From contig JBKDBG010000033.1 in NCBI GenBank assembly GCA_046314755.1, positions 417 to 64,416 on the forward strand: 64,000 nt of DNA, written 5' to 3'. The DNA comes from Bacteroidota bacterium. GTDB taxonomy: Bacteria; Bacteroidota; Bacteroidia; UKL13-3. Position 1 is the stretch's first letter; every line of letters begins with the position of its first letter. The notes under the pieces are model-generated. The model saw only the letters and a program-made list of their open reading frames with translations, did no database searches and was not told the DNA's origin. Shown here one piece after another: positions 14,161 through 59,500 of this stretch. The position numbers and the translations under genes are program-made.

Positions 14161-16299
14161 TTAATAAAATAAGTATCTGTTGTCTTTTACGTTTTTCAAT
14201 TCTTTCAACGTTTCAAAAGTTGCATACTCCACTCTGTTTGCAAGTTGACCTTGCACTTCCGTTTTATAAATTGAATAATCGGTTGTGGCAGACGCCTCAT
14301 TTACTTTTTTAATCATGTAAATGTATACTGCATTATCACCTTTTACCGGACCTAATATTTTGCCTTGTGTTTTGGTACCAAACAAGGTTCCTACCATTAC
14401 ATTATCAGGACCGACATAAGCAATGTTGTTGTTTTCAAAAGTTTGTCCCATTAATGGTGAAACCGATACTTGCAATTTTGTGGCAATGCTTTGTAAATCG
14501 CTTGCACCCGAAACAGCCACTTGAGCTTTCTCCATTAACTGCTCAGCTTTTTTCTCCTTGCGGTAATCTGCTTCAATACGTGCTTTTGCAGTTTCAAAAT
14601 CAGCCTTACCTTTTTCTCTGATATTGGTTAATACGGCTACTACAAATTTATCACCGGCAGAAAACACTTCCGATACTGCATCTTTCTCAGCATTGAACGA
14701 CCAACGAACAATTTCACGAGCTTCAGAAATAATGCCACCTACTTGTTTATCATTTTCTCTCATGAATTCTGCTGTCCTAATCACAAATTGATTATCTGCA
14801 GCCACCTTCTTAAACGACTCTAAGTTACTGATAGAAGCAGCAAATTGACTTGCCGCATTGTAAGCAGTAGTTGTTGTGCTTTCACTTGGTGAAATGCTTC
14901 TTGCTAAGTTGGCAGCACACACTAATTTCTTCGATTTATCTTCTGTAATTTTTAAGATGTGAATGCCAAATTGTGTTTTTACAATTTTCAAATCACCCTT
15001 TTTGCCGTTTAATGCAGCATCGTTAAATTCTTTTACCATTTGTCCTTCTGCAAACCAGCCTAGGTCACCGCCCTTTTGTGCAGTTCCGTCAGTTCCATAT
15101 TGAGCAGCCAATGCAGCAAAATCTCCACCGTTTTTAATTTGAGCTAAAACCTCAGCTGCTTTTTTCATGGTCGCTGCAGTGTCATTGTTATCAATACGGA
15201 ATAAAATGTGGCTCGCACGCATTTGGAATACCGAGTCTTGTTTAATGCCCACAACTTTATAAATGTTGTATCTGCCATCTTGGAAAACAGGACCAATAAT
15301 TGAACCTGCAGAATCGCGGAAAATTCTATCCGCTACTTCTTCAGGATATGCCGCACGTGGCTTAGCCGTTGGATCAAATTTAACCTCGCTGTTTGCATCA
15401 ACATACAAGGTATCGTTTACTGCATTTGCAAATTGAATTTTTTGCTCATTGGCCCATCTTAATGCATCAGCACTATCTTGCGCACTTGCAACTGCATCAA
15501 ACAAAACAAATTCAATTCTTCTTGAATTTTCTTTTTCAGCATATTTCTTGCTGTTTTTATTCATGAATGATTTTAATTCCGAATCATCAACTTTAATGGT
15601 TGAATCTGCGATGCTGAAGTAATTTAATGCAACAGCATCAACATCCATATTGCGTGAACGGTTTTGGTAAAGCGCTTTAGCTTCAAGTGAAGTTGCATAA
15701 ACCCCTTTACGAATCAACGCATAGTATTTTTTACTTTCTTGTTCTTTTAATAATCCATCTTCAAAAGCTAACCATTGATTCTTTGCTTCAGCATCATTTC
15801 TCGTTTCCAAATCTTTTAGAAAGCGAATAACCAACGTACGATCAAATTGGCCGGTTTGCGGATTTTTGAAAACCGGTGCTTGTTGAATTTGCGGATGCGG
15901 ATTATCACCTTGAACCAAATCAAACAATTCCTCGTTGGTTACCTTAATGCCCAAATCTTCATACTCATCCACCATGATACCTTCCATAATCATTTGGCTC
16001 CAAGTTTGTTCACGAACCATGTCAATGGTGTTTTGATCCATCTTTCCATCAGGACCCATTTGTTGACGAGCTAACTCGGTATTTTGTGCAACTTTGGCTT
16101 CAAAGGTTTTTACACCAATTCCTTCGCCATTAATTTCACCAACATCGGTAACGTTAGATCCACCGAATATTCGGCTATTATTTTGTAAGGCATCTGAAAT
16201 CACAAATAACGCCAATGCACCGCCTACAAAAGCAATAGCTAAACCCGAACGGTTTCTTATTTTCTCTAAAATCGACATATTTTGTTTGTTATTATCCAT
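14161..16299 (-). CDS. PpiD/SurA-like periplasmic peptidyl-prolyl isomerase chaperone with an N-terminal membrane anchor
   Basis: The start ...MSILEKIRNRSGLAIAFVGGALALFV is typical of PpiD. Parvulin motifs are ASHILF and GGDLGWF...FGIHILK. The start is ATG 16299 or 16278; the longer track ORF is discounted. Confidence 0.85.
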   Translation of the reverse strand: MDNNKQNMSILEKIRNRSGLAIAFVGGALALFVISDALQNNSRIFGGSNVTDVGEINGEGIGVKTFEAKVAQNTELARQQMGPDGKMDQNTIDMVREQTWSQMIMEGIMVDEYEDLGIKVTNEELFDLVQGDNPHPQIQQAPVFKNPQTGQFDRTLVIRFLKDLETRNDAEAKNQWLAFEDGLLKEQESKKYYALIRKGVYATSLEAKALYQNRSRNMDVDAVALNYFSIADSTIKVDDSELKSFMNKNSKKYAEKENSRRIEFVLFDAVASAQDSADALRWANEQKIQFANAVNDTLYVDANSEVKFDPTAKPRAAYPEEVADRIFRDSAGSIIGPVFQDGRYNIYKVVGIKQDSVFQMRASHILFRIDNNDTAATMKKAAEVLAQIKNGGDFAALAAQYGTDGTAQKGGDLGWFAEGQMVKEFNDAALNGKKGDLKIVKTQFGIHILKITEDKSKKLVCAANLARSISPSESTTTTAYNAASQFAASISNLESFKKVAADNQFVIRTAEFMRENDKQVGGIISEAREIVRWSFNAEKDAVSEVFSAGDKFVVAVLTNIREKGKADFETAKARIEADYRKEKKAEQLMEKAQVAVSGASDLQSIATKLQVSVSPLMGQTFENNNIAYVGPDNVMVGTLFGTKTQGKILGPVKGDNAVYIYMIKKVNEASATTDYSIYKTEVQGQLANRVEYATFETLKELKNVKDNRYLFY

Positions 16300-16401
16300 A
16301 TTTTGAAGCGAGCGAAAATAAATTTGTTCAGTATATAAAGCAACACCTTTTTCTTGGTGTGCTGAGTTATAAATCAAATCTTTGCATAAATTTATCATTA
16401 C

Positions 16402-17139
16402 ATGACACCCGAAAACGATGTTAATCCTGACAAACAGAATCATTTGTTTCTCATTCCCAGCTTTTTATCAGAAAACAATGATGCAGGATTTATTCCTGAA
16501 TACACCAAAGAGAAAATTCGTCACTTAAAACATTTTGTGGTTGAAAGTTCAAAAAGTGCCCGTGCCTTTCTCAAAAAAATGCAAATAAGCACTCCTCAAC
16601 AGGAGTTGGTGGTTGAAGAATGGAACGAGCATAGTAAACCCGAAGATTTACAAGAAATTGAAATGCTTTTTAAACAAAAACATAATCTTGGATTACTATC
16701 AGATGCAGGATTGCCTTGTGTTGCCGACCCCGGAAACCAGGTGGTGATGTTGGCCTACCGTTATGGATACAAGGTGACTCCTTTGCCGGGTTCATCAAGT
16801 TTATTTTTGGCATTAATGAGCAGTGGATTTAATGGACAACAATTTGCTTTTAACGGGTATTTGCCAATTGACAAATCGCAACGAGTTAAGAAAATAAAAG
16901 AAATGGAAAACTTGGTGTTGCAAAAGAACCAAACCCAAATCTTTATGGAGGCTCCATATAGGAACAATCAACTATTAGAGAGCATTTTGGGGGTTTGCGA
17001 CAAACAAACAAAACTGTGCATTGCATGCGATATCTCTTCACATGAAGAAATTATTTTAACCAAAACAATCCAAAATTGGACGAATTATCGTATAGATTTG
17101 CATAAAAAGCCGGTCATTTTTATACTGGGAAAATATTGA
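16402..17139 (+). CDS. Tetrapyrrole-methylase-fold SAM-dependent methyltransferase (RsmI-like)
   Basis: LFLIPSFL N-terminus, DAGLPCVADPG motif and PGSSSL motif, as in the RsmI/TP_methylase family. Confidence 0.65.
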   Translation: MTPENDVNPDKQNHLFLIPSFLSENNDAGFIPEYTKEKIRHLKHFVVESSKSARAFLKKMQISTPQQELVVEEWNEHSKPEDLQEIEMLFKQKHNLGLLSDAGLPCVADPGNQVVMLAYRYGYKVTPLPGSSSLFLALMSSGFNGQQFAFNGYLPIDKSQRVKKIKEMENLVLQKNQTQIFMEAPYRNNQLLESILGVCDKQTKLCIACDISSHEEIILTKTIQNWTNYRIDLHKKPVIFILGKY

Positions 17140-26732: not shown

Positions 26733-27617
26733 TTAAAGCTTGATAAACTTTTGGTAATATAAATTATTATTGGCTTGAATAGAAATGAAATACACACCAG
26801 CAGGTAAATGGGCAACACTGATTTCATGGTTTGATGGATGAACATCAACTGCATGTTTCTCTCCTGTTATTGATATCACTTCTACATTTTCAATGGTTTC
26901 TTTCCATTGGAGAAGTACTTTATCCTGTGCAGGATTTGGATACAAGGAAATGCTATTATTAGATCCCAAATCGCTAGTTCCGGTGCTGTATTCAATAAAC
27001 AGATCATCAATCCAAAACTTTGATCCCGGAATAGGGTCGAAACCATCTTTACTGCTCGAAAAAATAATGAAAGCCGAATCAGGCTTCTCTGTACTTAGGT
27101 ATTGAAAGTTAATTTTAACCATGGTGTAAATATCCGTGGTGTCATTTGTTTCGAAATCAGCTGTGGCAATGGTATCAGCCTGTTGGGTAGAAGTGTTCCA
27201 TTTGGTTAAAACCATTGCAGCCAAACAAGCATCATTGGGCATTGGTAATGATTTATAATAAAATCCAAAAGCTGCAGGCCTGGCAACAAATGGCACCTTG
27301 GTGTTTGACATATCTGATTCCATACTTTCATTCAAAAGCGGACCCGAGCATAATAAACCAGGTAAATTTTGAAAGGGACTCGCTTTGGTTTCAAGTAAGG
27401 CTGCAAAACCTCCCGAATGTGCATCTGATGATTGGATGGTGCTTTCTTCAAACCCGAACCTTTTTAATGGATTTAAAGTATGCCAAGCAACCGGATTGCT
27501 GTATCCTGAGCCTGATTCCCAAACATCAAGTCCGAATTGAGAAAATAAAGGAGCTGTTTGTGATTTTGCATTTGTGAGTAATCCTATCACACAAATACTG
27601 AGCATTATTTTTTTCAT
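26733..27617 (-). CDS. Secreted protein with a T9SS type-A C-terminal sorting domain
   Basis: Signal peptide MKKIMLSICVIGLL. C-terminus ISLYPNPAQDKVLLQW...LPAGVYFISIQ...YYQKFIKL is the classic Por secretion-tail pattern. Confidence 0.75.
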   Translation of the reverse strand: MKKIMLSICVIGLLTNAKSQTAPLFSQFGLDVWESGSGYSNPVAWHTLNPLKRFGFEESTIQSSDAHSGGFAALLETKASPFQNLPGLLCSGPLLNESMESDMSNTKVPFVARPAAFGFYYKSLPMPNDACLAAMVLTKWNTSTQQADTIATADFETNDTTDIYTMVKINFQYLSTEKPDSAFIIFSSSKDGFDPIPGSKFWIDDLFIEYSTGTSDLGSNNSISLYPNPAQDKVLLQWKETIENVEVISITGEKHAVDVHPSNHEISVAHLPAGVYFISIQANNNLYYQKFIKL

Positions 27618-27683
27618 AAGGAATTTAATTAAGTGCTCCACAAACGTAAACTAGTTTATTTTATAAACCAAATATATTTTTAT

Positions 27684-29580: not shown

Positions 29581-29611
29581 AAAACAGCCCGCACAAAGGC
29601 GGGCTGTTTTT
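29581..29611 (-). terminator. Rho-independent terminator after the 1813-aa gene
   Basis: ACAGCCCGC / GCGGGCTGT stem with an A-run and a T-run on either side. Confidence 0.8.
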
Positions 29612-29627
29612 ACAAAATTTATTTTAC

Positions 29628-32600
29628 TTACTCATCATCCCTAATCAAAGTAACTGTACCATTCACAGTTTTTGATTCACCATTAAGTAGTGAGTATTTA
29701 AATACATAGTAATATGTGCCTGCAGGACAAGCGGTACCGTCATTCATGTTGGTACCATCCCAATCTATTGCTGCCGATTTGGTTTCAAACACCTTGGTTC
29801 CCCAGCGGTTGTAAATCACTAAATCATATTCTGCTTCTCCTTGAATTACAATATTGAATACATCATTCTTGTTATCTTTATTAGGAGTGAATACGTTGTA
29901 AATTTCAAGTTGCGTTACAAAACGATAAGAAATGGTATCACAAACTTTATCTAAACAAATTGGCTTAGCCGGATCTGCAGTAAACGCTTCCAAGCAAATT
30001 ATCACATCACCTGTATCTGTGCCGAAATCGTACAACCAATCTCTATCAGATTCCACCTTGTCAACCGTAGCAATAATGGTGTTCGGATCTTTTACTCGCG
30101 CGGCAGTCCAAGTGTATTGTGATGAACTTAATGAGGTATTACGCAAACCGAATTTAGATGAGTTTTTGGCAGAATCAATTTCAAATGATGCATAAGGACG
30201 AACCACCTTAATACCTACTGTATCAAACAAGCGGCAGAACGGTAGACCAGGAGCCACTGTTGTTGGCTCTAATAATACCTTATACATACCCGTATCAGAA
30301 ATGGTTAACGGGAATCGGTTTTCCAAATTAGTTTTCACCACGGTTTGTACAGCACTATTTGTTGCCGAGTCCGCGACTATATATTTAAATTCAGTGTAAC
30401 TGATGGTGTCAGATAGGTTGGTAACATTAAATACTTGGTCCACACAAACGGTTTGTTTATCAAGCCTAATTTCAGCCGGATACGAGCGTTTAACTGTAAT
30501 CTTAATTGGTGCATCAATACCGCCAATTGTATCAGGGAAGTACACAATCTTACAACCTTGGTTATCTGACTGAGGATTATTATCATCACTCTTCGCGAAT
30601 ATGAAGAAAGTACCAGAATCATTATAGGTAAAGCTTAAGGTATCATACCTACCCAAACTTACAGTTTGTTGGTTATTGGCATCACCCCACAAAATAATAG
30701 TTGATTTAGTTGGCGTATCGGCAGCATCTCGTCCACCAAATACGTCAGCATAATTCACCACTTTTACCGTAAACGGACTACATCCAACAGTATCGGTAAT
30801 AACTTTAATAAACGGACGAGGACCACTGATGTATAAATTAGCGAAGCCGGTATCCTTACAACCTTGGTGAGACTCAACCACCAACTTAATGCGGAAGCTT
30901 CCGTTTCCTCTATACAACCATACCGGAGTGTCAATAGCCTGGGCATCGAATCTTAGGGTATCGGTTTTACGCTCACCAAAGAACCAGAAGTTTGTTTTGA
31001 TACTATCATATACGTTTTGAGTAACTCCCGGAACAGGCTTCATAAATGAACCGTCAAAGAAGGTAACAAGGTCACCGCAATTGTATAATCCCGGTTTAAT
31101 CAATGGTTCTGAAACCGGCTCAGTTACATAAACTGTGGCATATGAGGTATCCCAACATCCTAATCTGTCTCTGCTCAACATGGTAACAGTGTATTTACCG
31201 GGATTTTTGTATTTATGCACCGGACGAGTCCACATAGCAGAATCACCATCACCAAAGTACCATTTCATCTTTTCTACGTATGAACCGTCAGGACGGAAAT
31301 CGTTAGGATCGGTTGCTCCTTTTCTCCAATAGTCGGCAGTGTCATAATGATAGCTGTCAAATGGAGGATCAAGAGCAGGGCGTGTAGGATCACTCCAATC
31401 ACGATTAGGATTACCATTTATTGGATCCGATAAACTACAATCAGGACGGAAGTAACGCACTGAATCATAGAAATGAACTTCTTCACCCACACAGAAAATT
31501 TCATCAAACTCCATACGGCTGTTACGTACCATGGCTGAGTCAATGACACCACGAACCAACAACTTACTGTCTTGCGCTTGTTTTTTACACTCTTGGGTAC
31601 TTCCTAATAAGTGACTAACTGCTCTTGGTGCAGCACCCGGACGCTTACAATCATTTTCATATGAACTTGACCAATACTTATGTTGCACCGGCAATAACAT
31701 TCTGGCTTGGTCTTGATAATCGGGAACATAGAATACACTCAAAGTGTCTCTATCTTTCACCCAGAAACTTCTACCACACTCTTGCCAATTGGTTGAGTCA
31801 CCGCTTCTTCCTAAAAACACCAAGGAACCAAATGGATTTGTAGTTGCATTAAACAAGCGGAAAGTGTAATTATCCTTCCAAACGGTATCTACATTAACAC
31901 CCGGTATTCCGTTTGGAAATACAATACTGTCATAAACAATACCGTCTGTCCATTCACCACACGGACCATAATAAATTTGGTAACGAACCCTGCGGAAACC
32001 ATTTACGAAGTATCCATCGTTTTGCTTAGGATTTGCTGCATAAATGAAACTATCAACCGTTACAGAATTATCACCCCATGAAATGGTGCTGTGTTTTAGA
32101 TTTAATTGTGTACTATCGATATAAACGAAGTTCACGATGTCGTTTTTGCAATATAATTTACACGCACCGTTGGTAGGTGCTTTAGTAACTGGGTGGTAGG
32201 TTGGGTCTATAAAAAACCTACCATCTAAATCACCAAAGTATAAGAAGTTGTGGTACCAAATGGTATCAGAAATACATGCATTAGCAGGGTCACCTGAACC
32301 TACAATTAAACCAACGGTTACCCATCCTTCAGGGTTTGCAGGGCGATCAAGCGGCCATCCACTCGCTACGCCCGGACCGTAATGGTACCAGAAACTGGTT
32401 CCAAAAGGATCAGCCCATAAGTTTGGAGGTAAAAATTGTCCAAAGTCTTGACGGTTTGCAAATGGAGGTCGATTTAAACCACCCGGAGTTGTTCCACCGC
32501 CAAATCCCATAAATGCATCTAAAGCACAAGGCGTTTGATCTAAACGATCTGCCATAGAGTCGTGATTGAATAAAATGAACGACTGACCGCAATCAGGATT

Positions 32601-35069
32601 GATACCCGGATAATCTCCTAACCTATCACTAACAGAACTTAACATAAATTGAATACCGGCTCTGTCAGGACTTGAATAAGGACCAGGGCACTCTACTCCT
32701 TTTTTACCCAAACCTCTTGCATCAGGACGCATGAGTTTAAGTTGAACTTGATCATCATGTTCGCAATCAAGTGAATCGAGTTTTTGAATATCGTTTGCAA
32801 CAATATGGCTTTTTGCACCCACATTGTTTAATGAGTCTTTTAAGAATTGACGTACGGTGATACAACGCTGCACACCACGGTTAAACATGTAGCGATAAAA
32901 ACTAGTTGGTTCCGGACTGTTCGGAATTAAACTGTCATAATGGTGTTTTACAAAATCTCCATTAATGGCAGTATACTTTAAGGTCATGGTATCAAACTTA
33001 GGGTCGATGAGTGTACCTCTAGGCACGAAACCATAACCACCTTGTCCCGGAATGGTATTTCCGTAGAAACCAACAAATGGATCAGGAGCACCATTTTGTA
33101 AAATAAATCGGTTGTACGGCTCCAAATCTTGAGGAGCTGGCTGGCCTTGCACGTTACGTGAAGGAATATTATCAATACGTGGCCATAGCACAGTTTGATT
33201 GGTAAACGGATCAGTCCAAGTACCTTGGTTTAAACTCCATAAGCCGGTGTTTGGATCTAGGTAAACCGGTCTATTCCACCATAGAGTATCCCAATTTTGC
33301 ACCCAAATTTTCCTTGGATTAGCAGTTGGAAGCGTGTCGGCAGGTGTTCTTGTGTATTGCTGAGGATTCCAAGGCATAAAATCATGCCCGTATCTGTACC
33401 ATTTGTACACAATATCCCAATCGGTATAATTATGTAATGGAAGCGTATCGTTTGAGAAATTACAATCCAAACGTCTACCCGGAAATCTTTGTCCGTTTTG
33501 TACCCAATAACCGGTACTGTTGTTGTATTGGTCCATAGCAGTTGACCAACCACCCAATGGAGGGAAACCTACATTAGGTACTAAAAATGAAGTACATTGA
33601 GGAGCCACAGGATCACCAAAATCCCATAACCTGAATACGTGTTCCGATCTAAAATATTGACTGGTATTTACAAAGTCAACCGTTTTATAATAACCGCTAG
33701 GTAATGCTGAACATTGGTTTTTATCAGCAGGGTCGAGCGTAATCATGTTTGGTGGATCTTCAATCCTTGCCCTCGGCCCGAGCACATAAATAGAGTCAAA
33801 TAAAGTTTTATTACAAGGAGCAGGTGAAAGGGTTAAGCGAACGCGGTAACCGCCTAAACGTGTAACGAAGGTATGAGGAACTGTCCAGTTGCTGGTGTTA
33901 AAGTTTAATTGCATTGATTGAGGATCATCAAATACCCACAACAATTCTCCATTACCCGGATTTACTAAGTCATTAGGAGTTTGTTTGAAAATTAATGTAG
34001 CATTACCTTCTCTACCCCAGCAAACAGAATCTCTTCTTAATACCGGATCATTTAAGGTAAGCATACTAATGGTGTCAAACTGAATCTTAATATTTTGAGG
34101 CTTGTTACCTGGACTTGTTGATGACATTCTAAAACTGTCGATACAACCTGTTACATCCTCAATAATTAATGCAGGAAGGAATGTTCCGTTTTTAGTGTAT
34201 TTGTGATAGATGGTATCGTAATTGTACTCGTCTCTTGGCAACACAAAAGGAGCACTTCTGGTAACGGTATTTCCATCACCAAAATCCCAAGTGTAACGAC
34301 TTACCTGATTGAAAGGAACCTGACTAATAGTTGTGTTTTTGAACATGTATTGTGAGGTATCACAATTACGCGACCCAAAAACTTGGAAAGAAGGCGTAAT
34401 ATTATTTTTAATGGTGATTAAACCATTGTACGTAACCTCTTTAAAACATCCTTTGTCATCAGTTACTTTTACGGTGATATTATATTGGTTACTGGCTGAA
34501 TAAGTGTGGGCATATTGTTGTCCGTTAGCCGGAGTTGGCTGAACCGTTAAAAAACCATCACCCCAAAGCAATTGTAATTGAGCAATATTGTTGTCTGTTT
34601 TTTGGCTATTGTCAACCAAGGTTACCAAATTGCCTCTGAAACATTGAATAGGACTGCCATTTACCGTAGCAGCAGCAATTGGCAAATTATAAACAATCGT
34701 GTTTAAGGTTATGGATGCTTTTGACCCATTGCTGAGATCTGCCTCTACCTTAATTGTTTTGTTACCTGCTGTAGCGTAAGTGTATCTGAATTGATAATTT
34801 GGGCCTGCACCGGGAACAGTTCCTTCAAACGTACCGTTGTTGTCCATGTCAAACTTCATGGCAGTGGCCGTAACACCACCGGGCAAACCCGAGATGTTGG
34901 CGTCAAGAACCAACTCATCACCCAAACATACATAAGCAGCGCTGGGCGTAACTGCTACCGTTTGCGCATTTGCCTTTAAAAGCGTAAGGCAGCTGAGCAC
35001 AAACATCATTAGATTAATTCGTAAGAGCTTATTCATATATATTATTTTGTTATTTTTCATTTCTTTCAA
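29628..35069 (-). CDS. Giant (1813 aa) cell-surface protein with PKD-like domains and a T9SS type-B (gliding-motility CHU_C) C-terminal domain
   Basis: Signal peptide, PKD signatures (WDFGDGN, WYFGDGDS...KYKNPGKYTVTM) and the C-terminus YNVFTPNKDNKNDVFNI...IYNRWGTKVFE...WDGTNMNDGTACPAGTYYYVF. An alternative start lies at 35036. Confidence 0.9.
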   Translation of the reverse strand: MKEMKNNKIIYMNKLLRINLMMFVLSCLTLLKANAQTVAVTPSAAYVCLGDELVLDANISGLPGGVTATAMKFDMDNNGTFEGTVPGAGPNYQFRYTYATAGNKTIKVEADLSNGSKASITLNTIVYNLPIAAATVNGSPIQCFRGNLVTLVDNSQKTDNNIAQLQLLWGDGFLTVQPTPANGQQYAHTYSASNQYNITVKVTDDKGCFKEVTYNGLITIKNNITPSFQVFGSRNCDTSQYMFKNTTISQVPFNQVSRYTWDFGDGNTVTRSAPFVLPRDEYNYDTIYHKYTKNGTFLPALIIEDVTGCIDSFRMSSTSPGNKPQNIKIQFDTISMLTLNDPVLRRDSVCWGREGNATLIFKQTPNDLVNPGNGELLWVFDDPQSMQLNFNTSNWTVPHTFVTRLGGYRVRLTLSPAPCNKTLFDSIYVLGPRARIEDPPNMITLDPADKNQCSALPSGYYKTVDFVNTSQYFRSEHVFRLWDFGDPVAPQCTSFLVPNVGFPPLGGWSTAMDQYNNSTGYWVQNGQRFPGRRLDCNFSNDTLPLHNYTDWDIVYKWYRYGHDFMPWNPQQYTRTPADTLPTANPRKIWVQNWDTLWWNRPVYLDPNTGLWSLNQGTWTDPFTNQTVLWPRIDNIPSRNVQGQPAPQDLEPYNRFILQNGAPDPFVGFYGNTIPGQGGYGFVPRGTLIDPKFDTMTLKYTAINGDFVKHHYDSLIPNSPEPTSFYRYMFNRGVQRCITVRQFLKDSLNNVGAKSHIVANDIQKLDSLDCEHDDQVQLKLMRPDARGLGKKGVECPGPYSSPDRAGIQFMLSSVSDRLGDYPGINPDCGQSFILFNHDSMADRLDQTPCALDAFMGFGGGTTPGGLNRPPFANRQDFGQFLPPNLWADPFGTSFWYHYGPGVASGWPLDRPANPEGWVTVGLIVGSGDPANACISDTIWYHNFLYFGDLDGRFFIDPTYHPVTKAPTNGACKLYCKNDIVNFVYIDSTQLNLKHSTISWGDNSVTVDSFIYAANPKQNDGYFVNGFRRVRYQIYYGPCGEWTDGIVYDSIVFPNGIPGVNVDTVWKDNYTFRLFNATTNPFGSLVFLGRSGDSTNWQECGRSFWVKDRDTLSVFYVPDYQDQARMLLPVQHKYWSSSYENDCKRPGAAPRAVSHLLGSTQECKKQAQDSKLLVRGVIDSAMVRNSRMEFDEIFCVGEEVHFYDSVRYFRPDCSLSDPINGNPNRDWSDPTRPALDPPFDSYHYDTADYWRKGATDPNDFRPDGSYVEKMKWYFGDGDSAMWTRPVHKYKNPGKYTVTMLSRDRLGCWDTSYATVYVTEPVSEPLIKPGLYNCGDLVTFFDGSFMKPVPGVTQNVYDSIKTNFWFFGERKTDTLRFDAQAIDTPVWLYRGNGSFRIKLVVESHQGCKDTGFANLYISGPRPFIKVITDTVGCSPFTVKVVNYADVFGGRDAADTPTKSTIILWGDANNQQTVSLGRYDTLSFTYNDSGTFFIFAKSDDNNPQSDNQGCKIVYFPDTIGGIDAPIKITVKRSYPAEIRLDKQTVCVDQVFNVTNLSDTISYTEFKYIVADSATNSAVQTVVKTNLENRFPLTISDTGMYKVLLEPTTVAPGLPFCRLFDTVGIKVVRPYASFEIDSAKNSSKFGLRNTSLSSSQYTWTAARVKDPNTIIATVDKVESDRDWLYDFGTDTGDVIICLEAFTADPAKPICLDKVCDTISYRFVTQLEIYNVFTPNKDNKNDVFNIVIQGEAEYDLVIYNRWGTKVFETKSAAIDWDGTNMNDGTACPAGTYYYVFKYSLLNGESKTVNGTVTLIRDDE

Positions 35070-35105: not shown

Positions 35106-36176
35106 TTATTGTTTTAATAACAGTAAACCATTGTAAACCTCAGGCACTTGCATTCCTTTTATTTGGTATTTGAGTGTTACCATATAAATCCCGGGCTCAC
35201 AAGTTGTACCATTGTAAACATTTGTACCATTCCAAAACTTAGTTTTGTTTTTAGTTTCGAATACAATTTTTCCAACTTGGTCGGTAATTTTTAATTCATA
35301 TAAGGTTTCATTGTCTATCGTAATCACAAACTCATCATTGTATCCATCATGATTAAATGGTGTAAATACATTTGGTATTTGCGGTTTACTAAAATCAGCC
35401 TCTGTGTAGGTCTCAAACAACGAATCGATAGGCGACTGTTTACGTTCACCCAAATCGCCCATAACGGCCTTTTGAATAAACGAATCCCCACCATTTTGTT
35501 TATCTAACTCGGCTTGTTGGGTTGGATCATTTTCTTGATTATTCATTTCACTCACATCACTCTTGGCCACAACTATTAATGAATCCGCACTTATTATTTG
35601 TTCTTTGTTGATGTTTGAGGAAACATGAACGTCTTCTGTTGATACCACAACTTGATCCGCAGGAGGAGCTGAGCTTGGAGCAGATTCCGCAGGAGTAATT
35701 TCCTTTATTGAAATATGACCGTCATCAGAAAGTGTATTTTTGGGCTTAGCTGTTTCAATAGAAACAGAACTTTCCTCAATTTGCGGTTCAGTATGAATTA
35801 CAGGTTGTTCTACTTTTTCAAATACTGCTTCATTCACTTGCTCCGACTGAATGGCAGCAATATTTTGTTCAATACTTTGCTCGGTAGCACCAACAATCAC
35901 CAAAGAATCTTTATCTGATGGTTGGCTTACGAATTGATAACCTAACAAAGACACCCCTGTGGTTACGGCAGTAATGATAGCAACTGCAATTTTTGAGGTT
36001 AAAGTAAAAGCTTTTACCGAACCGGTAGCCACCTTAGTTGCAGATGCAGCCGGGTTTATTGCTGGGATTTGATTGATTTGATGGCTGATGGAATTCCATA
36101 ATTCAGCTGGCGGATCTGATTTAAAATCCGACAACTCATTTCTGAGTAATTCATCAACCTTCTTATTTATACTCAT
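35106..36176 (-). CDS. Anti-sigma-factor-like bitopic membrane protein ending in a T9SS type-B C-terminal domain
   Basis: ATGA overlap with the upstream ECF sigma gene. It has a short cytoplasmic N-terminus (PPAELWNSISHQI), a single TM helix (IAVAIITAVTTGVSLLGY) about 60 aa in, an acidic low-complexity linker, and a C-terminal PNVFTPFNHDGYNDEF...FWNGTNVYNGTTCEPGIYMV. Confidence 0.7.
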   Translation of the reverse strand: MSINKKVDELLRNELSDFKSDPPAELWNSISHQINQIPAINPAASATKVATGSVKAFTLTSKIAVAIITAVTTGVSLLGYQFVSQPSDKDSLVIVGATEQSIEQNIAAIQSEQVNEAVFEKVEQPVIHTEPQIEESSVSIETAKPKNTLSDDGHISIKEITPAESAPSSAPPADQVVVSTEDVHVSSNINKEQIISADSLIVVAKSDVSEMNNQENDPTQQAELDKQNGGDSFIQKAVMGDLGERKQSPIDSLFETYTEADFSKPQIPNVFTPFNHDGYNDEFVITIDNETLYELKITDQVGKIVFETKNKTKFWNGTNVYNGTTCEPGIYMVTLKYQIKGMQVPEVYNGLLLLKQ

Positions 36177-36724
36177 GATATCTCTTTTACACTACTTAGT
36201 TTTTTTAATTCTTCCTGAAGGATTACCCTCGCTCTGCTTAACTGTGATTTTGAAGTTCCCTCCGAAATACCCATAATCTCAGCAATTTCAGCGTGAGAAT
36301 AACCTTCTACTATGTACAAATTCAATACTGTTCTGTATCCAGGGGCCATTTGATTCATTATTTGTAAAATTTCCTTTTGTGAAATTTTATCCAATGTATG
36401 ATCATCCACCAATTTATCCTCCGCTCCTTCAGCTCCTGAGTGATACATGTGTACTTTATTTACACGATAGAATTCTAAAGCACAATTAATAAATATACGC
36501 TTCATCCAACCTTCAAAAGAACCATTCCCTTCAAATTGATGCAATTTGGTAAATACCTTGATAAACCCGTCCTGCATGATATCCTTCGCTTCTTCCTTAT
36601 TACTGCTGTACCTGATACAGATACCGTACATTGTTGAAGCAAACTTCTCATACAAGGCTTTTTGAGCCTTACCGTCACCTGCAATACATTTCTGTATTAA
36701 CTCATGCTCCTTATTAATTGCCAC
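36173..36724 (-). CDS. ECF-type RNA polymerase sigma-70 family factor
   Basis: Region 2 (ALYEKFASTMYGICIRYSSNKEEAKDIMQDGFIKVF) and region 4 HTH (YSHAEIAEIMGISEGTSKSQLSRAR). Confidence 0.9.
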   Translation of the reverse strand: MAINKEHELIQKCIAGDGKAQKALYEKFASTMYGICIRYSSNKEEAKDIMQDGFIKVFTKLHQFEGNGSFEGWMKRIFINCALEFYRVNKVHMYHSGAEGAEDKLVDDHTLDKISQKEILQIMNQMAPGYRTVLNLYIVEGYSHAEIAEIMGISEGTSKSQLSRARVILQEELKKLSSVKEIS

Positions 36725-36828
36725 TTTATTGTCGGTTAATTCTTATGATGAATATTTGAGTTGATTGGTTGCAATATATTTTCAATTTTTATTAAAAGTT
36801 TCTTTATGCAACGGAATTTCATCCCCAT

Positions 36829-39800
36829 TTGTCTATTTTAGCAGATACTAGAAACGATTCTATCTTGATTTCGCTTGGGAAAATATCACGTTATATATTG
36901 CTTACATTTTTGATTGTGTGTAAGTTAAATGCACCGGCACACCAAATTGATTCGGTTCAGGTTACTTCAACTTTTATTCGAAATGAAGGTCAATGGGAGA
37001 ATCCTGCCCTATTTCTATACAGCGCAAACCACACCCAAGTATTTTTTGAAAATAAGGGCTTAAGGTACTTTTTCGACCATCCGGAGGATATTGAAGCCTA
37101 TTTTGACCACCAAAAAAATCCTCATTTATTTAACACCAAAACTATAAGAAGGCATGCTGTTTTTATGGAATTTATCAATAGCGAAACTATTTTTCCTCAA
37201 GGTGGGGAAGAACAGCTAGCAAAATTGAACTTTATTCAGGGAAACGAATCAAAATACTGGAAATCAAACGTAAGAACCTACCAAATTATCCAATACAAGA
37301 ACTTGTATAAAGGAGTTGATTTAAAAGTTTACCCGCATGTTATGGGGGTGAAATACGATTTTATTATTCAGCCCAAATCTGATTATCAACAAATTAAATG
37401 GAAATACGAAGGTGCTGAAAAAGTACTGTTAAAAAACAGACAACTGCACATTAAAACAAGTGTGAACACCTTAATTGACCTTGCCCCATTTGCTTACCAA
37501 TGGATTAACGGAGTTCGAATGGAGGTTGCTTGCGAGTTTAACTTGAACAAAATGGGAGAGGTAGGCTTCGTTTTAGGCGATTACAACCCAAACTTCGAAA
37601 TCATAATTGACCCGGTTTTGGTGTTTAGCACCTACAGCGGAAGCAGCGTTGATAACTTTGGGCATAGTGCTACTTTTGATGATGAAGGCAACTTATATAC
37701 AGCGGGAATCGCCCGCAACCCAACAGATTTCCCGAATGGCCGATATCCGGTAACTATTGGGGCGTTTCAAACCACTTGGGGAGGAGGAGTAGGAAATTGG
37801 CCACAGTTTGGTTTCCCGTGTGACATTTCAATCAGCAAGTACAATAACGATGGAAGCAACCTAATCTATGCCACTTATTTAGGTGGAAACAGAAATGAAT
37901 ATCCCATTAGTATTGTAGCTGATAGTCAAGGGAATTTATTCATATTAGGAACCACATTGTCGGCAAACTACCCAACTACCATGGGGGCCTACCAAACAAA
38001 TAAAGCAGATTCTTTTGATATTGTAGTAAGTAAATTAAGCGCCAACGGAACCCAACTTTTAGGAAGTACTTACTTTGGAGGCAATGGTATTGATGGATTA
38101 AACATTGCCGATACCCTAAGAATGAATTATGCAGATGAGTTTAGGGGGGAAATTCAATTATCGTCAAATGGTGACGTTTATATTGTCTCCAATACAGTAT
38201 CTACTAATTTAAATGGAACAAGCAATGCACTGCAAACAACCAAAAATGGATTACAAGACGGGATTATTTTAAAGTTTAATTCATCCCTTAATCAACTTAA
38301 AGCTTTTACTTTTTTAGGCCAAAACCAACAAGACGCATTATACTCCATTGATGTTTATCCTAATGCTAATGTAATTGTGGCCGGAGGAACTCAAAGTCAA
38401 GGATTTAACGTCAATTCATCTCATTTTAAAGCCACTTATAATGGAGGGATTAGTGATGCCTTTATAGCTATTATTGACAGCAACCTTTCACAACTCACCA
38501 ACATCAGATATTGGGGCAGCAATACTTATGACCAAGCGTATTTTGTAAAACTCGATCCGCAACAGCGCCCGGTTTTAATGGGACAGGCATTTGACAGTAT
38601 TTTTATAAGCACAGGAGTATATCGCAATACGAATGGTTCTTTGTTTATCACCAAGTTTACCCAACAGTTGAACCAAGTTGTGTTTTCAACCCAAATTGGG
38701 AATGGAGTAAAAAACAATGCCTTGGCTCCAAGTGCATTTATGGTAGATGTTTGCGGAAAAATTTATGGGTCGGTTTGGGGCGGTGCCGTAAATTTTCAAT
38801 CAAGATTCAGGCAGTTACAGCCTAGTCAATTTCAAAGTTCAACAACAGGCATGCCGGTTAGTGTAAATGCATTTCAAACCAATACCGATAACAGCGACTT
38901 TTATCTATTTGTGTTGAGCGAAAATGGAGATTCTCTCAATTATGCGACATTTTTTGGCGAGAATAATGATCCTGACCATGTTGATGGTGGAACTAGTAGA
39001 TTTGATAAACGTGGAATTGTGTATCAATCAGTTTGTGCCAGTTGTAGTGGGGGTATTTTTGGAAGTTTCCCGACAACCGTTGGAAGTTATTCACCAAAAA
39101 ATGAAAGTCCTCGTTGCAGTAATGCCGGTTTTAAATTTGATTTTAGGCAAGGAAACGTACTTACTGCTGATTTTTTGATTCAACCTCGAAATGGATGCTC
39201 AGATACAACCATCCAATTCCTAAATAACTCATTCGGTGCTACAAAAAGCTATTGGTATATAAATAACCAGTTAAGGGATTCATCCATCAACTTTGCTCAA
39301 ACGTTTAATGCACCCGGACAATACCAAGTTAAGTTGGTTGTAACTAATGCCGCAACCTGTAACTCCATTGACTCTATTATTAAAAACATTCACATTCATC
39401 CCTCAGCACAAGCTTTATTTGATGCAGTTTATGATACTTGCAGTACCAAACTCAATTTTCAAAACAAGTCTCTTGTTGATACCGGTTTTGTAGCCAATTA
39501 CCTCTGGTTTTTTGGTGATGGAGATACTTCTACGTTGTCAAATCCAACACACACCTATTTAGCTAACGGTAATTTTCCCGTTCAACTTATTGTAAATTCA
39601 GGTAGTATTTGTGCCGACACTGCAGAAAGGATTGTAGTAATTGATTCAAGCAAGCTGGCTATTAGCAGTTCATTCTCGCCAACCGACTCATTGTATTGTG
39701 CTCCTTTTCTATTGCAAATCCGAAACAACCGAGCCAATGAAATGGAACATTATTGGCAAATCAATAATACAGAAATTAGCAGGCCCTTTGGGGGTTTTGA

Positions 39801-41448
39801 TACCATTTTAAACCAAGGTGTTTATCAAGTTAAACTGATTGAAAAATCAGCGTTCAGTTGCAATAAAGCAGATACCTTTACACGAACCTTTACTTTTTTA
39901 CCGGAGCGTTTTCCGGATTTTAACTTTTTAATTGATTCCTGCACTTTGAGGGTTGATTTTCAAAACACTTCGTTTGCACAGCCGGGTGATTCCTTATTTT
40001 GTACTTGGGATTTTGGTGATGGAAATAACAGCAACACATTTAACCCCAATCATAAATATGCCGACACCGGAAACTTTGAGGTAACTTTAACCTTGAACAA
40101 AGGATTTCCTTGCGAAAGAAGAATTACCAAACAAGTTCGGATTGAATTGAATGAAAGACAACTATTGTCGAGATTTAACATTGAGCCTGAGCCAATTTGC
40201 GAACCAACGGTTATTGAATTAATAAATACGAGCTTAAACAACACAAAAAGTTATTGGTATAGAAATGCTGTTTTTATGGACAGTACCCAACAACAGGTGT
40301 TTGATACCATTAAACTCGCAGGAAAATATGTATATACCTTAGTAATTTATAACCCCAATACCTGCAAAATATATGACACGCTGTCTATTGAAACCCATGC
40401 CTATCCAAGTGCAGTTGCCAATTTTGTGATTAAAAAAGACAGCTGCTCCAACGCAGTTATCCTCACTAATAAAAGCTCAAGCAATTCAAGCTCCGGCATC
40501 AATTATTTATGGGATTTTGGCAATGGATTTTCTTCTACTCAAGCACACCCCGACATTAATTACGATACCACCGGAAAATATTTGGTAACCTTAATTACAC
40601 AAGCCGGAAGTCCTTGTGCCGATACGGCAACACAAGAGTTAAATTTCGTAAAAAATAGCCATGAGTTAAAAGCCAATTTCGAACTTACCGACAGTATATT
40701 TTGTAATCCGCTGTATTTAAGCGTTAACTCCACCGGAGTTAATGGAAAACAATTTGAATGGCACATCAACCAACAATTACAGGGTATTGGAATTAACTTT
40801 AAAGATACCATTGAAACAGCGGGAACTTACCGTATTAAACTGAGGGTGATTGACAGCAGCAGTTGTACCATTACGGATTCAATGATAAAAAACATTACCG
40901 TTGAAAATTTTTCGGAAGCTGATTTTAATATGAGCAGAGATAGTTGCTCCCTTTTGGTGCGCTTTTCTAACTTAAGTGCAGGAAGTGCCGCTTCTACTTT
41001 TGTTTGGAGTTTTGGCGATGGGGATACCTCCAAACAAATGAATCCGGAGCATGAATATAAACAAGGTGGAAACTATACTGTAAGGTTAATTTACAATGCA
41101 GGCAGCATTTGTGCTGATACGGCCGAAAATATTTATGCCATTGATGGTGATACGGGTGAGTTATTATTTATTCCGAATGTATTCACCCCGAACAATGACG
41201 GTGATAATGATTGTTACAAAATACTTGGCGTAAGTACCAAATGCGATGAATATAAAATTATTGTTTACAACCGTTGGGGCAATCCGGTTTATGAAAATTT
41301 AGACGGAAGCAAATGTTGGAACGGCAATGCACAAAACGGTGAGCCTTTGCCATCAGGCGTGTATTACTATATAATGAAAGTAAAAAAACGGGAGGAGTCG
41401 GAAAGTACCCATCACGGAACCATTACCCTTATACGAGGCAATGATTAA
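36829..41448 (+). CDS. Giant (1539 aa) cell-surface protein with SBBP-type beta-propeller repeats, four PKD-containing didomain modules and a T9SS type-B C-terminal domain
   Basis: The track start is a TTG and there is no in-frame ATG near the signal-like segment. SBBP-like motifs YATYLGGN...ANYPTT and STYFGGNGIDG. Four W.FGDG PKD signatures. C-terminus IPNVFTPNNDGDNDCY...VYNRWGNPVYE...CWNGNAQNGEPLPSGVYYY. Confidence 0.9.
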   Translation: MSILADTRNDSILISLGKISRYILLTFLIVCKLNAPAHQIDSVQVTSTFIRNEGQWENPALFLYSANHTQVFFENKGLRYFFDHPEDIEAYFDHQKNPHLFNTKTIRRHAVFMEFINSETIFPQGGEEQLAKLNFIQGNESKYWKSNVRTYQIIQYKNLYKGVDLKVYPHVMGVKYDFIIQPKSDYQQIKWKYEGAEKVLLKNRQLHIKTSVNTLIDLAPFAYQWINGVRMEVACEFNLNKMGEVGFVLGDYNPNFEIIIDPVLVFSTYSGSSVDNFGHSATFDDEGNLYTAGIARNPTDFPNGRYPVTIGAFQTTWGGGVGNWPQFGFPCDISISKYNNDGSNLIYATYLGGNRNEYPISIVADSQGNLFILGTTLSANYPTTMGAYQTNKADSFDIVVSKLSANGTQLLGSTYFGGNGIDGLNIADTLRMNYADEFRGEIQLSSNGDVYIVSNTVSTNLNGTSNALQTTKNGLQDGIILKFNSSLNQLKAFTFLGQNQQDALYSIDVYPNANVIVAGGTQSQGFNVNSSHFKATYNGGISDAFIAIIDSNLSQLTNIRYWGSNTYDQAYFVKLDPQQRPVLMGQAFDSIFISTGVYRNTNGSLFITKFTQQLNQVVFSTQIGNGVKNNALAPSAFMVDVCGKIYGSVWGGAVNFQSRFRQLQPSQFQSSTTGMPVSVNAFQTNTDNSDFYLFVLSENGDSLNYATFFGENNDPDHVDGGTSRFDKRGIVYQSVCASCSGGIFGSFPTTVGSYSPKNESPRCSNAGFKFDFRQGNVLTADFLIQPRNGCSDTTIQFLNNSFGATKSYWYINNQLRDSSINFAQTFNAPGQYQVKLVVTNAATCNSIDSIIKNIHIHPSAQALFDAVYDTCSTKLNFQNKSLVDTGFVANYLWFFGDGDTSTLSNPTHTYLANGNFPVQLIVNSGSICADTAERIVVIDSSKLAISSSFSPTDSLYCAPFLLQIRNNRANEMEHYWQINNTEISRPFGGFDTILNQGVYQVKLIEKSAFSCNKADTFTRTFTFLPERFPDFNFLIDSCTLRVDFQNTSFAQPGDSLFCTWDFGDGNNSNTFNPNHKYADTGNFEVTLTLNKGFPCERRITKQVRIELNERQLLSRFNIEPEPICEPTVIELINTSLNNTKSYWYRNAVFMDSTQQQVFDTIKLAGKYVYTLVIYNPNTCKIYDTLSIETHAYPSAVANFVIKKDSCSNAVILTNKSSSNSSSGINYLWDFGNGFSSTQAHPDINYDTTGKYLVTLITQAGSPCADTATQELNFVKNSHELKANFELTDSIFCNPLYLSVNSTGVNGKQFEWHINQQLQGIGINFKDTIETAGTYRIKLRVIDSSSCTITDSMIKNITVENFSEADFNMSRDSCSLLVRFSNLSAGSAASTFVWSFGDGDTSKQMNPEHEYKQGGNYTVRLIYNAGSICADTAENIYAIDGDTGELLFIPNVFTPNNDGDNDCYKILGVSTKCDEYKIIVYNRWGNPVYENLDGSKCWNGNAQNGEPLPSGVYYYIMKVKKREESESTHHGTITLIRGND

Positions 41449-58138: not shown

Positions 58139-59500
58139 ATGAACAAAATAGTTTCCATGTTAATTCTCCTGTTGTGCGGCTTAACAACAAAAGCACAATT
58201 AAACGGACAGCTGCTTGATGAAATTGCTGCCGTGGTGGGAGATAACATCATTATGCAATCAGAAATTGATGTAGAGTTTCAGCAACTGCAAAAAGAACTT
58301 GGTGAGATGCATGATAGTGTGAAGTGTGTCATTCTTCGTCAAAAACTGGTTGAAAAAATGTTGCTCACTCAAGCCCAATGGGATAGTGTTCCGTTAGCTG
58401 ATGAGCGAGTTGACATGGAATTGGAAAAACGTATCAAATTTTTTGCCTCACAATTTCCCGGAGGTGAAAAAGAAATGGAAAGCTATTACGGAAAAACCAT
58501 TAGTGAAATTAAAGCCACCAACCGCGAAAAAATTAAACAAAACATGTTGGTGCAAGAAATGCAGGGTAAGTTGCTTAGAGATATAAAAGTATCGCCAACG
58601 GATGTTAAAAAATATTTTAACGAGTTAGATAAGTTAGACAGCTTACCCTATTACAGTGCCGAAATTGAATTGGCACAAATTGTAATTATGCCTAAGGTGA
58701 GCAAAGAAGCCAAAGAATTGGCGCATCAAAAAATTACCGAACTGCGCGACCGTGTATTGCAAGGAGATAACTTTGCAACCTTAGCATTAATTTACAGTGA
58801 TGATAAAGGCTCGGCACAACGCAGAGGAGAGTTGGGCATGTTTACCCGCGGTGATATGGTTCCGGAGTTTGAGGCGACAGCTTATAAACTCAAACCTGAT
58901 AGTGTTTCTAAAATTGTTGAAACCAAATTTGGCTACCATATTCTGCAGTTGATTGAGCGCAAAGGTGAAAACATTAATGTAAGACATATCCTTATTAGGC
59001 CGCAAATTTTCAGAAGTGATATTAATAAGGCCAAAGATTTATTAGATAGCATTTTGTGGTTGGTAAAAATAGATTCGATGAAGTTTGAAGACGCTGCCAA
59101 AAAATACAGCGATGACGAAAATACCAAAGCCAACGGAGGCTACTTTTCTGACGGGCAAGTTGGCTCAACCAAAGTGCCTATTGATGAATTGCCAAAAGAT
59201 ATTTATTACTTAATTGATAAATTAGAGCCGGGTCAGGTATCGGAGCCTGAATTAATTACTTTACCAACGCCCGACAGACAACAAGCTTGGCGTGTGTTTT
59301 ACGTAAAAAGTATTTCAGCACCTCACCGTGCCAATTTAAAAGACGACTATCAAAAAATGCAGGCACTTGCCTTGCAACGCAAACAAAATCAAACTATGCA
59401 AAATTGGATTGAGAAACACAAAAATGTGTTTTACTTGCATATTAGCGATCAATACAAAAACTGCAACAGCATACAAGATTTTTATAAAAAGAGCAACTAA
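58139..59500 (+). CDS. SurA-type periplasmic chaperone / peptidyl-prolyl isomerase
   Basis: The SurA N-terminal domain start is DEIAAVVGDNIIMQSEID. The parvulin domain motifs are GELGMFTRGDMVPEF...FGYHILQL. Confidence 0.85.
   Translation: MNKIVSMLILLLCGLTTKAQLNGQLLDEIAAVVGDNIIMQSEIDVEFQQLQKELGEMHDSVKCVILRQKLVEKMLLTQAQWDSVPLADERVDMELEKRIKFFASQFPGGEKEMESYYGKTISEIKATNREKIKQNMLVQEMQGKLLRDIKVSPTDVKKYFNELDKLDSLPYYSAEIELAQIVIMPKVSKEAKELAHQKITELRDRVLQGDNFATLALIYSDDKGSAQRRGELGMFTRGDMVPEFEATAYKLKPDSVSKIVETKFGYHILQLIERKGENINVRHILIRPQIFRSDINKAKDLLDSILWLVKIDSMKFEDAAKKYSDDENTKANGGYFSDGQVGSTKVPIDELPKDIYYLIDKLEPGQVSEPELITLPTPDRQQAWRVFYVKSISAPHRANLKDDYQKMQALALQRKQNQTMQNWIEKHKNVFYLHISDQYKNCNSIQDFYKKSN

Follow-up and report, generated by a model that had tools for sequence, protein, structure and literature searches.

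The question raised by this locus is what a type IX secretion system (T9SS) sorting signal does on a protein that otherwise looks like an anti-sigma factor anchored in the inner membrane. [quoted passage not shown] The best explanation, to which a probability of roughly 0.45 is given, is that this protein is an anti-sigma factor similar to Dma1, in which the barrel has been replaced by the type-B CTD and which is coupled to the T9SS by the mechanism set out in the last section.

In the Bacteroidota, PorXY-SigP-PorA of Porphyromonas gingivalis is the best-studied case in which the synthesis of T9SS cargo is matched to the condition of the secretion machinery, and the cargoes of this system include huge gliding and adhesion proteins. 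An anti-sigma factor that bears the same sorting signal as the giant cargo of its own operon would represent a concrete circuit for secretion-coupled gene control. The regulatory role of these proteins is invisible in current public annotation, and NCBIfam gives a specific name to neither the sigma nor the anti-sigma-like gene.

The sigma factor gene and its overlapping partner

The two genes, and the four parts that can be distinguished in the anti-sigma-like protein, are as follows.

36173..36724, minus strand: ECF sigma factor gene, 183 amino acids (aa) with a GTG start, matching Sigma70_r2, Sigma70_r4_2 and TIGR02937
36176..35106, minus strand: anti-sigma-like gene, an open reading frame (ORF) of 356 aa
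36033..36176, minus strand: aa 1-48, conserved N-terminal module, putative sigma partner (VDELLR..F...PPAELWNSI), from family conservation
35928..36008, minus strand: single transmembrane (TM) segment, aa ~57-83, from hydropathy and AlphaFold2 (AF2)
35382..35927, minus strand: acidic low-complexity linker, aa 84-265, predicted to be disordered from its charge and its predicted local distance difference test (pLDDT) values
35109..35381, minus strand: CHU_C / T9SS type-B CTD, aa 266-356, from PF13585

The sequence-only reading had described an ECF sigma gene that stops inside the start codon of the next gene, and this is borne out by the ORF coordinates and by the TCAT found on the plus strand at 36173-36176 (i.e., ATGA on the coding strand), where the ATG start of the anti-sigma-like gene overlaps the TGA stop of the sigma gene. 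The identity of the first gene is equally clear from its profile scores, which are 47.8 bits for Sigma70_r2, 64 bits for Sigma70_r4_2 and 92.6 bits for TIGR02937 (cut-off 42.9). With regions 2 and 4 only and a length of 183 aa, the product is an ECF (group IV) sigma-70 protein, and the solved structures nearest to it are those of ordinary ECF sigma factors (SigW, SigH and SigE).

The layout of a single-pass anti-sigma factor that had been read from the letters alone is also found in the second protein. Its PPAELWNSI motif occupies aa 22-30, and residues D8, E9, L10, L11, P23 and W27 are invariant in an alignment of eight proteins that share 26-39% overall identity. An AF2 model built on this eight-sequence alignment, which was used after one from a three-sequence alignment had been discarded for its pLDDT of 35, places two short helices in the N-terminal module (aa 4-15 and 24-34), with a pLDDT of only ~55. 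We infer that this module would be the part that binds the sigma factor. The segment at aa ~57-83 is the sole Kyte-Doolittle peak of the protein and falls in a helix that the model extends over aa 51-83; given that three lysines (K48, K55 and K62) precede it and acidic residues come after it, the distribution of charges fits the predicted N-in orientation. The 182-aa linker that follows contains 34 D/E against 12 K/R, for a net charge of -22, and is modelled without secondary structure at a pLDDT of ~30. No family-wide alignment of it is possible, and its length differs between members, with tethers of 125-182 aa that correspond to an estimated contour length of ~45-65 nm.

As in RseA and RsiW, which are set free through regulated intramembrane proteolysis, the protein is predicted to be single-pass and N-in, and the sigma factor would be held at the membrane and freed by sequential proteolysis, although in length its N-terminal module falls well below a class I anti-sigma domain. 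The latter (RsrA/ChrR/RseA, zf-HC2) is a four-helix domain of ~80-90 aa, often with HxxxCxxC, whereas the window protein has only ~56 aa before the TM segment, no Cys and no zinc motif. No Pfam anti-sigma family matches the protein, the match to NF052375 ('antisigma') reaches 16 bits against a cut-off of 100 and is not significant, and the PDB profile search with the N-terminal module returned no match.

The C-terminal type-B domain named in the sequence-only reading is recovered by PF13585 with 49.4 bits over aa 266-341 (gathering score 27), while TIGR04131 gives 32.2 bits over aa 266-352, slightly below its curated cut-off of 35. This domain is the sole confident part of the AF2 model (pLDDT 80-93), and it retains the NxFTPNxDGxND, W(N/D)G and GxY signature, which is invariant in the eight-protein alignment and common to the two giant cargo proteins encoded on either side (described below). 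Its best fold match in the PDB is a 75-residue chain in entry 8gl8, a T9SS extended translocon, and is weak (E 0.01, target TM-score 0.56); the remaining fold matches are generic Ig-like domains with comparable scores. According to a 2025 paper (PMC12618676), type-B CTDs were still without a solved structure.

The Ig-like matches at similar scores and the sub-threshold TIGR04131 score would also fit a domain that never meets the translocon, namely a CHU_C-like beta-sandwich that serves as a periplasmic sensor, like the periplasmic sensor domains of canonical anti-sigma factors, and binds for example unexported cargo CTDs, a chaperone or a ligand. This role is improbable, given that the domain passes the Pfam gathering score for CHU_C and shares its full signature with the flanking cargo, and that a disordered tether of the lengths seen across the family would be needless for a sensor that stays near the membrane.

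The family and its C-terminal modules

The anti-sigma-like protein does not stand alone but is a member of a conserved family. When the full-length sequence was compared with 5.8 billion proteins in a word-indexed search, only the protein itself and two close orthologues (87% and 84% identity) were returned, both of which keep the same neighbour genes; neither the first 100 aa nor an N-terminal profile of 16 sequences gave a useful match in searches of this kind. From an exhaustive phmmer search of 1.84 billion cluster representatives with the first 95 aa, seven more proteins of ~300 aa were obtained that have the same layout of N-motif, TM segment, linker and CHU_C; these are 50%-identity cluster representatives besides the window protein's own. 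All proteins with this four-part layout come from metagenome-assembled genomes (MAGs) or metagenome assemblies, and the fact that every example so far is from uncultured bacteria is the main practical obstacle.

At the DNA level, the back-translated pattern [ILV]-D-E-L-[LF]-[KR]-x9-P-P-x3-W-x2-[ILV], which has one match in the window and none in 100 shuffles, was scanned against one genome per GTDB species. This gave 75 loci, compared with ~4 expected by chance (a rough estimate), and at 66 of the 75 the motif lies close to the beginning of a Bacteroidota ORF, with a TM segment after it. In all of the 60 family loci that have enough upstream DNA, a co-oriented, related ECF sigma gene comes directly before this ORF, separated from it by -11 to +50 nt (the start codons of three of the 60 were corrected by hand), and the full-length upstream sigmas match the window sigma with phmmer E-values of 1e-32 to 1e-85. 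On metagenome contigs, a second, DELL-specific pattern gave 15 matches, nine of which are CTD-type loci, with the sigma gene directly upstream in the eight that were examined. The linkage of homologues to ECF sigma genes, on which the sequence-only reading had made its proposal depend, is thus seen at every testable locus and supports the anti-sigma reading.

The same survey bears on the possibility that there is no anti-sigma factor here, and that the protein is an ordinary small T9SS cargo whose start has been mis-called and whose adjacency to a sigma gene is coincidental. A GTG at codon 49 precedes a segment that resembles a signal peptide, and codons 1-48 show no clear synonymous excess among the three close orthologues, with only weak purifying selection, as would fit a true start at this GTG. 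Nonetheless, this explanation is largely refuted and has a very small probability. The N-terminal motif by itself retrieves a family with a sigma gene directly upstream at all 60 loci, often overlapping; the ATGA overlap is retained in the related loci L001-L003; and outside the CTD the motif is the best-conserved part of the protein among distant relatives. Since six of the 19 invariant residues of the distant family fall in aa 8-27, the N-terminus is taken to be coding and conserved, and translation from codon 49 to give a signal peptide was rejected.

What follows the TM segment differs across the 66 family loci.

35/66 loci: outer-membrane beta-barrel (PF13568 / PF13505)
10/66 loci, plus one cut off: CHU_C domain (10-11 GTDB species genomes, about one in six)
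about 15/66 loci: no C-terminal module recognised
6/66 loci: C-terminal module cut off by the locus end

It is in this arrangement that the likeness to Dma1 is found. Pardue et al. described Dma1/Das1, of which Reo/EcfO is the B. fragilis orthologue (PMC10927553). Dma1 is encoded beside a Bacteroidota-only ECF21 sigma gene and consists of a sigma-binding region at the N-terminus, followed by a TM helix, a tether that is disordered, and an outer-membrane barrel of eight strands annotated as OMP_b-brl_2; its N-terminus was shown to bind the sigma factor, the full-length protein was found in membranes and C-terminal fragments in vesicles, and the paper does not mention the T9SS (PMC10927553). The anti-sigma gene of the window likewise lies directly downstream of a Bacteroidota-restricted ECF sigma gene, and its product has a short cytoplasmic module, one TM segment, a long disordered tether and a C-terminal module predicted to be destined for the outer membrane. 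Moreover, the relatives that its N-motif retrieves carry OMP_b-brl_2 barrels annotated like that of Dma1, and the motif [ILV]DEL[LF][KR]x9PPx3W is common to the window protein and the sigma-adjoining barrel proteins.

There are also differences from Dma1. The window protein has a T9SS type-B CTD instead of the eight-stranded barrel (no outer-membrane barrel of Pfam matches it, and its C-terminus is CHU_C), and its operon carries a giant T9SS cargo gene, whereas the described Dma regulons concern vesicle production. The sigma factors differ as well, given that those of CTD-type partners cluster apart from the barrel-type ones. An indirect pointer to ECF21, the group of the Dma/Reo sigma partners, is that the window sigma matches full-length sigma genes beside barrel-type partners with phmmer E-values of 1e-32 to 1e-54 and has a promoter motif in common with them (described below). 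In a neighbour-joining tree the sigmas of CTD-type partners stand mostly apart from those of barrel or short partners. Seven sigmas form a tight sub-cluster in this tree, comprising that of the window, five with CTD-type partners and one with a partner gene that is cut off, while three further sigmas of CTD-type partners branch separately near the base. The principle suggested for the Dma-type family is that the C-terminal module is an interchangeable outer-membrane addressing device.

Among the loci without a recognised module are short members of 218-278 aa that have the N-motif and the TM segment, lack a C-terminal domain, and adjoin sigma genes. Their existence makes it plausible that such a stub is sufficient as an anti-sigma factor, and the window protein could be a bifunctional precursor, in which a constitutive cut in or near the tether would leave motif and TM segment as the anti-sigma factor and hand the linker and CTD to the T9SS for export as a separate surface component, e.g., as an adhesin or shuttle accessory or as a cap. 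The stable C-terminal fragments that Dma1 yields (PMC10927553) and the suggestion that PG1035 caps PorP (PMC9143113) are in line with this. However, the linker is low-complexity and unconserved, which would leave the exported fragment without a functional passenger, and no conserved cleavage motif follows the TM helix in the family alignment; a precursor of this kind has a low probability.

The short members themselves (L013, L028, L033, L037, L043, L055, L058, L060, L067, L070 and L071) consist of the N-motif, the TM segment and a charged tail, and their hosts belong to Cyclobacteriaceae, Cytophagales, Flammeovirgaceae, Saprospiraceae and Roseivirga. The one from Roseivirga pacifica (L037) is named a hypothetical protein in RefSeq.

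Other variants were observed in the course of the survey. In P0011, P0014, L070, L077 and L078, two to about five tandem F..F...PP..W..I motifs precede the TM helix, which raises the question of whether one anti-sigma factor holds several sigma molecules. An extra, apparently folded segment stands between linker and CHU_C in L012 and L051 (aa ~215-300) and in L049 (aa ~230-360), with cysteines in L012 and L051, so that these three proteins are more than a tether and a CTD. The weak phmmer matches of the N-terminal query to P0005 and P0012 (477-601 aa, with tandem repeats of ~55-60 aa) were rejected as family members, given that these resemble translated repetitive DNA. Five further loci (L023, L024, L026, L056 and L087), from Deferribacteres-labelled MAGs and one unclassified bacterium, match the DNA pattern at one conserved site (aa ~451-461) of ~635-aa proteins with receiver-domain-like N-termini; these were treated as chance matches, and the four of them from the genome scan have no upstream sigma gene.

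Operon, giant cargo genes and predicted promoters

The surroundings of the gene pair comprise two very large genes and the candidate signals for their transcription.

29628..35069, minus strand: downstream giant protein with PKD and CHU_C domains, 1813 aa as listed (PKD_4; CHU_C 75.4 bits)
29581..29610, minus strand: terminator-like hairpin with a 12-bp stem, of which 7 are G-C pairs, followed by a T-run (consensus match only)
36829..41448, plus strand: divergent giant protein (listed at 1539 aa) with DUF7948, beta-propeller, PKD and CHU_C, from domain matches
36747..36772, minus strand: predicted ECF-type promoter of the sigma operon, GCAACC-N16-CATC, from its motif
36807..36835, plus strand: candidate for a second ECF-type promoter, directed towards the divergent giant, with the sequence TGCAACG-N17-GTCTA, an imperfect copy

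The gap between the anti-sigma-like gene and the downstream giant is 36 nt, and no GCAAC-type promoter falls in it among the pattern matches. The hairpin stands directly after the stop of the giant gene, and only there does the window operon have a predicted terminator. The sigma, anti-sigma-like and downstream giant genes are probably co-transcribed as a three-gene operon. This arrangement recurs in the related loci, whose flanks were screened with locally built profiles for the sigma factor, the CTD and the barrel. Nearly all CTD-type loci have, on the same strand, a very long ORF that begins 4-71 nt after the anti-sigma-like gene, and its product, where complete, has 1,803-2,425 aa and always ends in CHU_C; loci L048 and L049 are divergent outliers. 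The connection with adhesins that had been proposed from the window alone is strong across the family. A divergent CHU_C protein of ~1,510-1,545 aa is encoded in L001-L002, L038, L040, L082, L083, L084 and L091, is partial in L003 and has 933 aa in L088.

Only three proteins of the window have a CHU_C domain, namely the anti-sigma-like protein and the giants on either side of it, and they are related at this domain. The CTD of the anti-sigma-like protein is 42% identical to that of the downstream giant and ~32% identical to that of the divergent one, and a local HMM made from the family CTDs scores the two cargo CTDs at 82.7 and 49.7 bits. Its identity is 42-46% to the closely related downstream giants of the window, L001 and L032, and 30-35% to that of L051. 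A tracking of the neighbour's CTD within each lineage was considered and rejected, given that the identity is alike for own and foreign downstream giants.

It is at this point that a passive role of the CTD can be weighed. Outer-membrane barrels of the PorP/SprF type recognise type-B CTDs, which remain bound to them uncleaved (PMC9143113), i.e., these CTDs are anchoring devices, and a CTD docked to such a barrel would let the protein span both membranes "in trans" as a Dma-like envelope sensor. The signal would then be a perturbation of the envelope or outer membrane, surface contact or mechanical load, not T9SS throughput, and engagement would stabilise the anti-sigma factor. This agrees with the fact that most family members have an outer-membrane beta-barrel in the position of the CTD, and with the proposal that Dma1 senses outer-membrane or extracellular cues through its C-terminal module (PMC10927553). 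It leaves unexplained, however, why the CTD type is paired in its operon with a giant type-B cargo and why its CTD resembles that of the cargo. On balance, a passive tether is unlikely, though less so than a periplasmic sensor or a bifunctional precursor.

In all core CTD-type loci, the motif TGCAACC-N16/17-CATCT precedes the sigma start by ~45-60 nt, and GCAACC-N16/17-(C)ATCT stands upstream of the sigma gene at 37 of the 57 wider-family loci, including barrel, CTD and short types, compared with a roughly estimated chance rate of ~0.03 per locus. The motif fits an autoregulated ECF promoter and could be family-wide, and it is very likely, judging by these sequence features, that the downstream giant is under the control of this sigma factor.

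For the divergent giant the case is different. The motif at 36807..36835 is the sole match in the window to the stricter pattern, which occurs at least once in 28 of 100 shuffles. L001, L003, L005, L038 and L040 keep the motif, and L082, L083, L084, L088 and L091, i.e., half of the related loci, lack it. Given its loss in these five loci and the sigma-A-like TAnnTT(T/A)G box (consensus from PMC9723704) that is conserved upstream of the divergent giant in these loci, the divergent giant was downgraded to an uncertain member of the regulon. The listed TTG start of this gene (36829) overlaps the predicted promoter, which suggests that the true start is probably the in-frame TTG at 36865; the latter gives a better signal peptide (M-ISLGKISRYILLTFLIVCKLNA).

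A possible secretion-coupled switch and its precedents

The secretion-coupled switch that forms part of the preferred reading, a Dma-like anti-sigma factor with a type-B CTD in place of the barrel, is plausible from this analysis and could operate as follows. The N-terminal ~50 aa would retain the sigma factor at the inner membrane, and the disordered tether of ~180 aa would let the CTD reach the T9SS in the outer membrane, either at the SprA translocon or at a PorP/SprF-like shuttle barrel. The fate of the anti-sigma factor would then be set by the availability of the T9SS or of the shuttle. Capture of the CTD would lead to tension or proteolysis in the tether and then to intramembrane cleavage, as proposed for Dma1, and the freed sigma factor would transcribe its own operon from the GCAACC-N16/17-CATCT promoter, giving more sigma factor, newly made anti-sigma factor and the adhesin-like cargo of 1813 aa. 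Given that cargo and anti-sigma factor carry related orphan CTDs, a backlog of cargo would slow the removal of the anti-sigma factor, and the synthesis of adhesin would in this way match the export capacity.

Known type-B substrates provide the closest comparison for the C-terminal half of the protein (SprB/SprF, PG1035/PorP and the Fjoh orphans/Fjoh_1677; PMC9143113, PMC12618676). The window protein is like them in its C-terminal CHU_C / TIGR04131-like domain with the conserved motifs; within the window, this domain is most closely related to the CTDs of the two flanking giants. As in the orphan substrates, there is no adjacent sprF-like gene among the 29 window ORFs scanned, and the protein would accordingly count as an orphan. 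In F. johnsoniae, orphan type-B CTDs are served by a single shuttle if they are more than 44% identical (PMC12618676). SprF is disulfide-linked to the moving GldK track (PMC12635249), which would supply a pulling force. Unlike these substrates, the window protein probably has no cleavable Sec signal peptide, in place of which stand a conserved 56-aa module, predicted to be cytoplasmic, and a TM anchor; it has no folded passenger, only the disordered linker; and it is genetically coupled to a sigma factor.

A more specific form of the preferred reading would make the anti-sigma factor a true client of the T9SS, with its CTD captured by SprA or by an SprF-like shuttle riding on GldK, its chain stretched or extracted and then proteolysed, and the sigma factor freed. 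The circuit would then be at once a FlgM-like checkpoint and a backlog sensor, licensing adhesins of ~1,800 aa only when export capacity is free. In this detail the model is doubtful.

FlgM is the classic secretion-released anti-sigma factor and acts on sigma-28 at the flagellar checkpoint. The proposed logic is the same, in that the secretion apparatus removes the anti-sigma factor of a sigma factor which controls late substrates of that apparatus. In contrast to the window protein, FlgM is soluble and cytoplasmic, has no membrane anchor and is exported whole by a type III apparatus, and the two are not homologous. In P. gingivalis, the CTD protein PorA (PGN_0123) signals to PorXY-SigP (PMC7712824). 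As proposed for the window protein, a CTD protein passes information about the cell surface or the T9SS on to an ECF sigma factor; PorA differs in that it is a secreted surface protein with a type-A CTD, acts through a two-component system and not through an anti-sigma factor, and controls genes for T9SS components. Given the precedents of Dma1/Reo, FlgM and PorA-PorXY-SigP, the statement in the sequence-only reading that no characterised mechanism of this kind was known goes too far. The swap of a barrel for a type-B CTD and the pairing with a giant type-B cargo are new here, and the literature search found no described anti-sigma factor with a T9SS CTD.

Several points weigh against the preferred reading. 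T9SS substrates normally fold as free periplasmic proteins, whereas here the chain is tethered to the inner membrane. The direction of the switch could also be the opposite of that proposed, as engagement of the CTD could lead either to release of the sigma factor or to a more stable anti-sigma factor. Architecture, annotation and features shared across the family are what links the protein to Dma, not an alignment with BT_4721 (Dma1) or Reo, and the window protein is for this reason best described as a sister architecture. The comparison of the 29 window ORFs with Pfam found neither a porP/sprF-like nor a T9SS core gene. To these are added the TIGR04131 score below its cut-off, the weak constraint on codons 1-48, and the second promoter motif that half of the related loci lack.

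Elsewhere in the window, a gene at 26733-27641 on the minus strand encodes a 302-aa PCMD-domain protein with a type-A T9SS sorting domain (Por_Secre_tail, 45.9 bits). Its presence indicates that the organism probably has a T9SS, and it means that both classes of CTD are encoded within 10 kb. The 64 kb that hold these genes for very large exported proteins also contain three paralogues of SurA / PPIase-type periplasmic chaperones, at 14161-16443 on the minus strand and at 55976-58000 and 58139-59500 on the plus strand.

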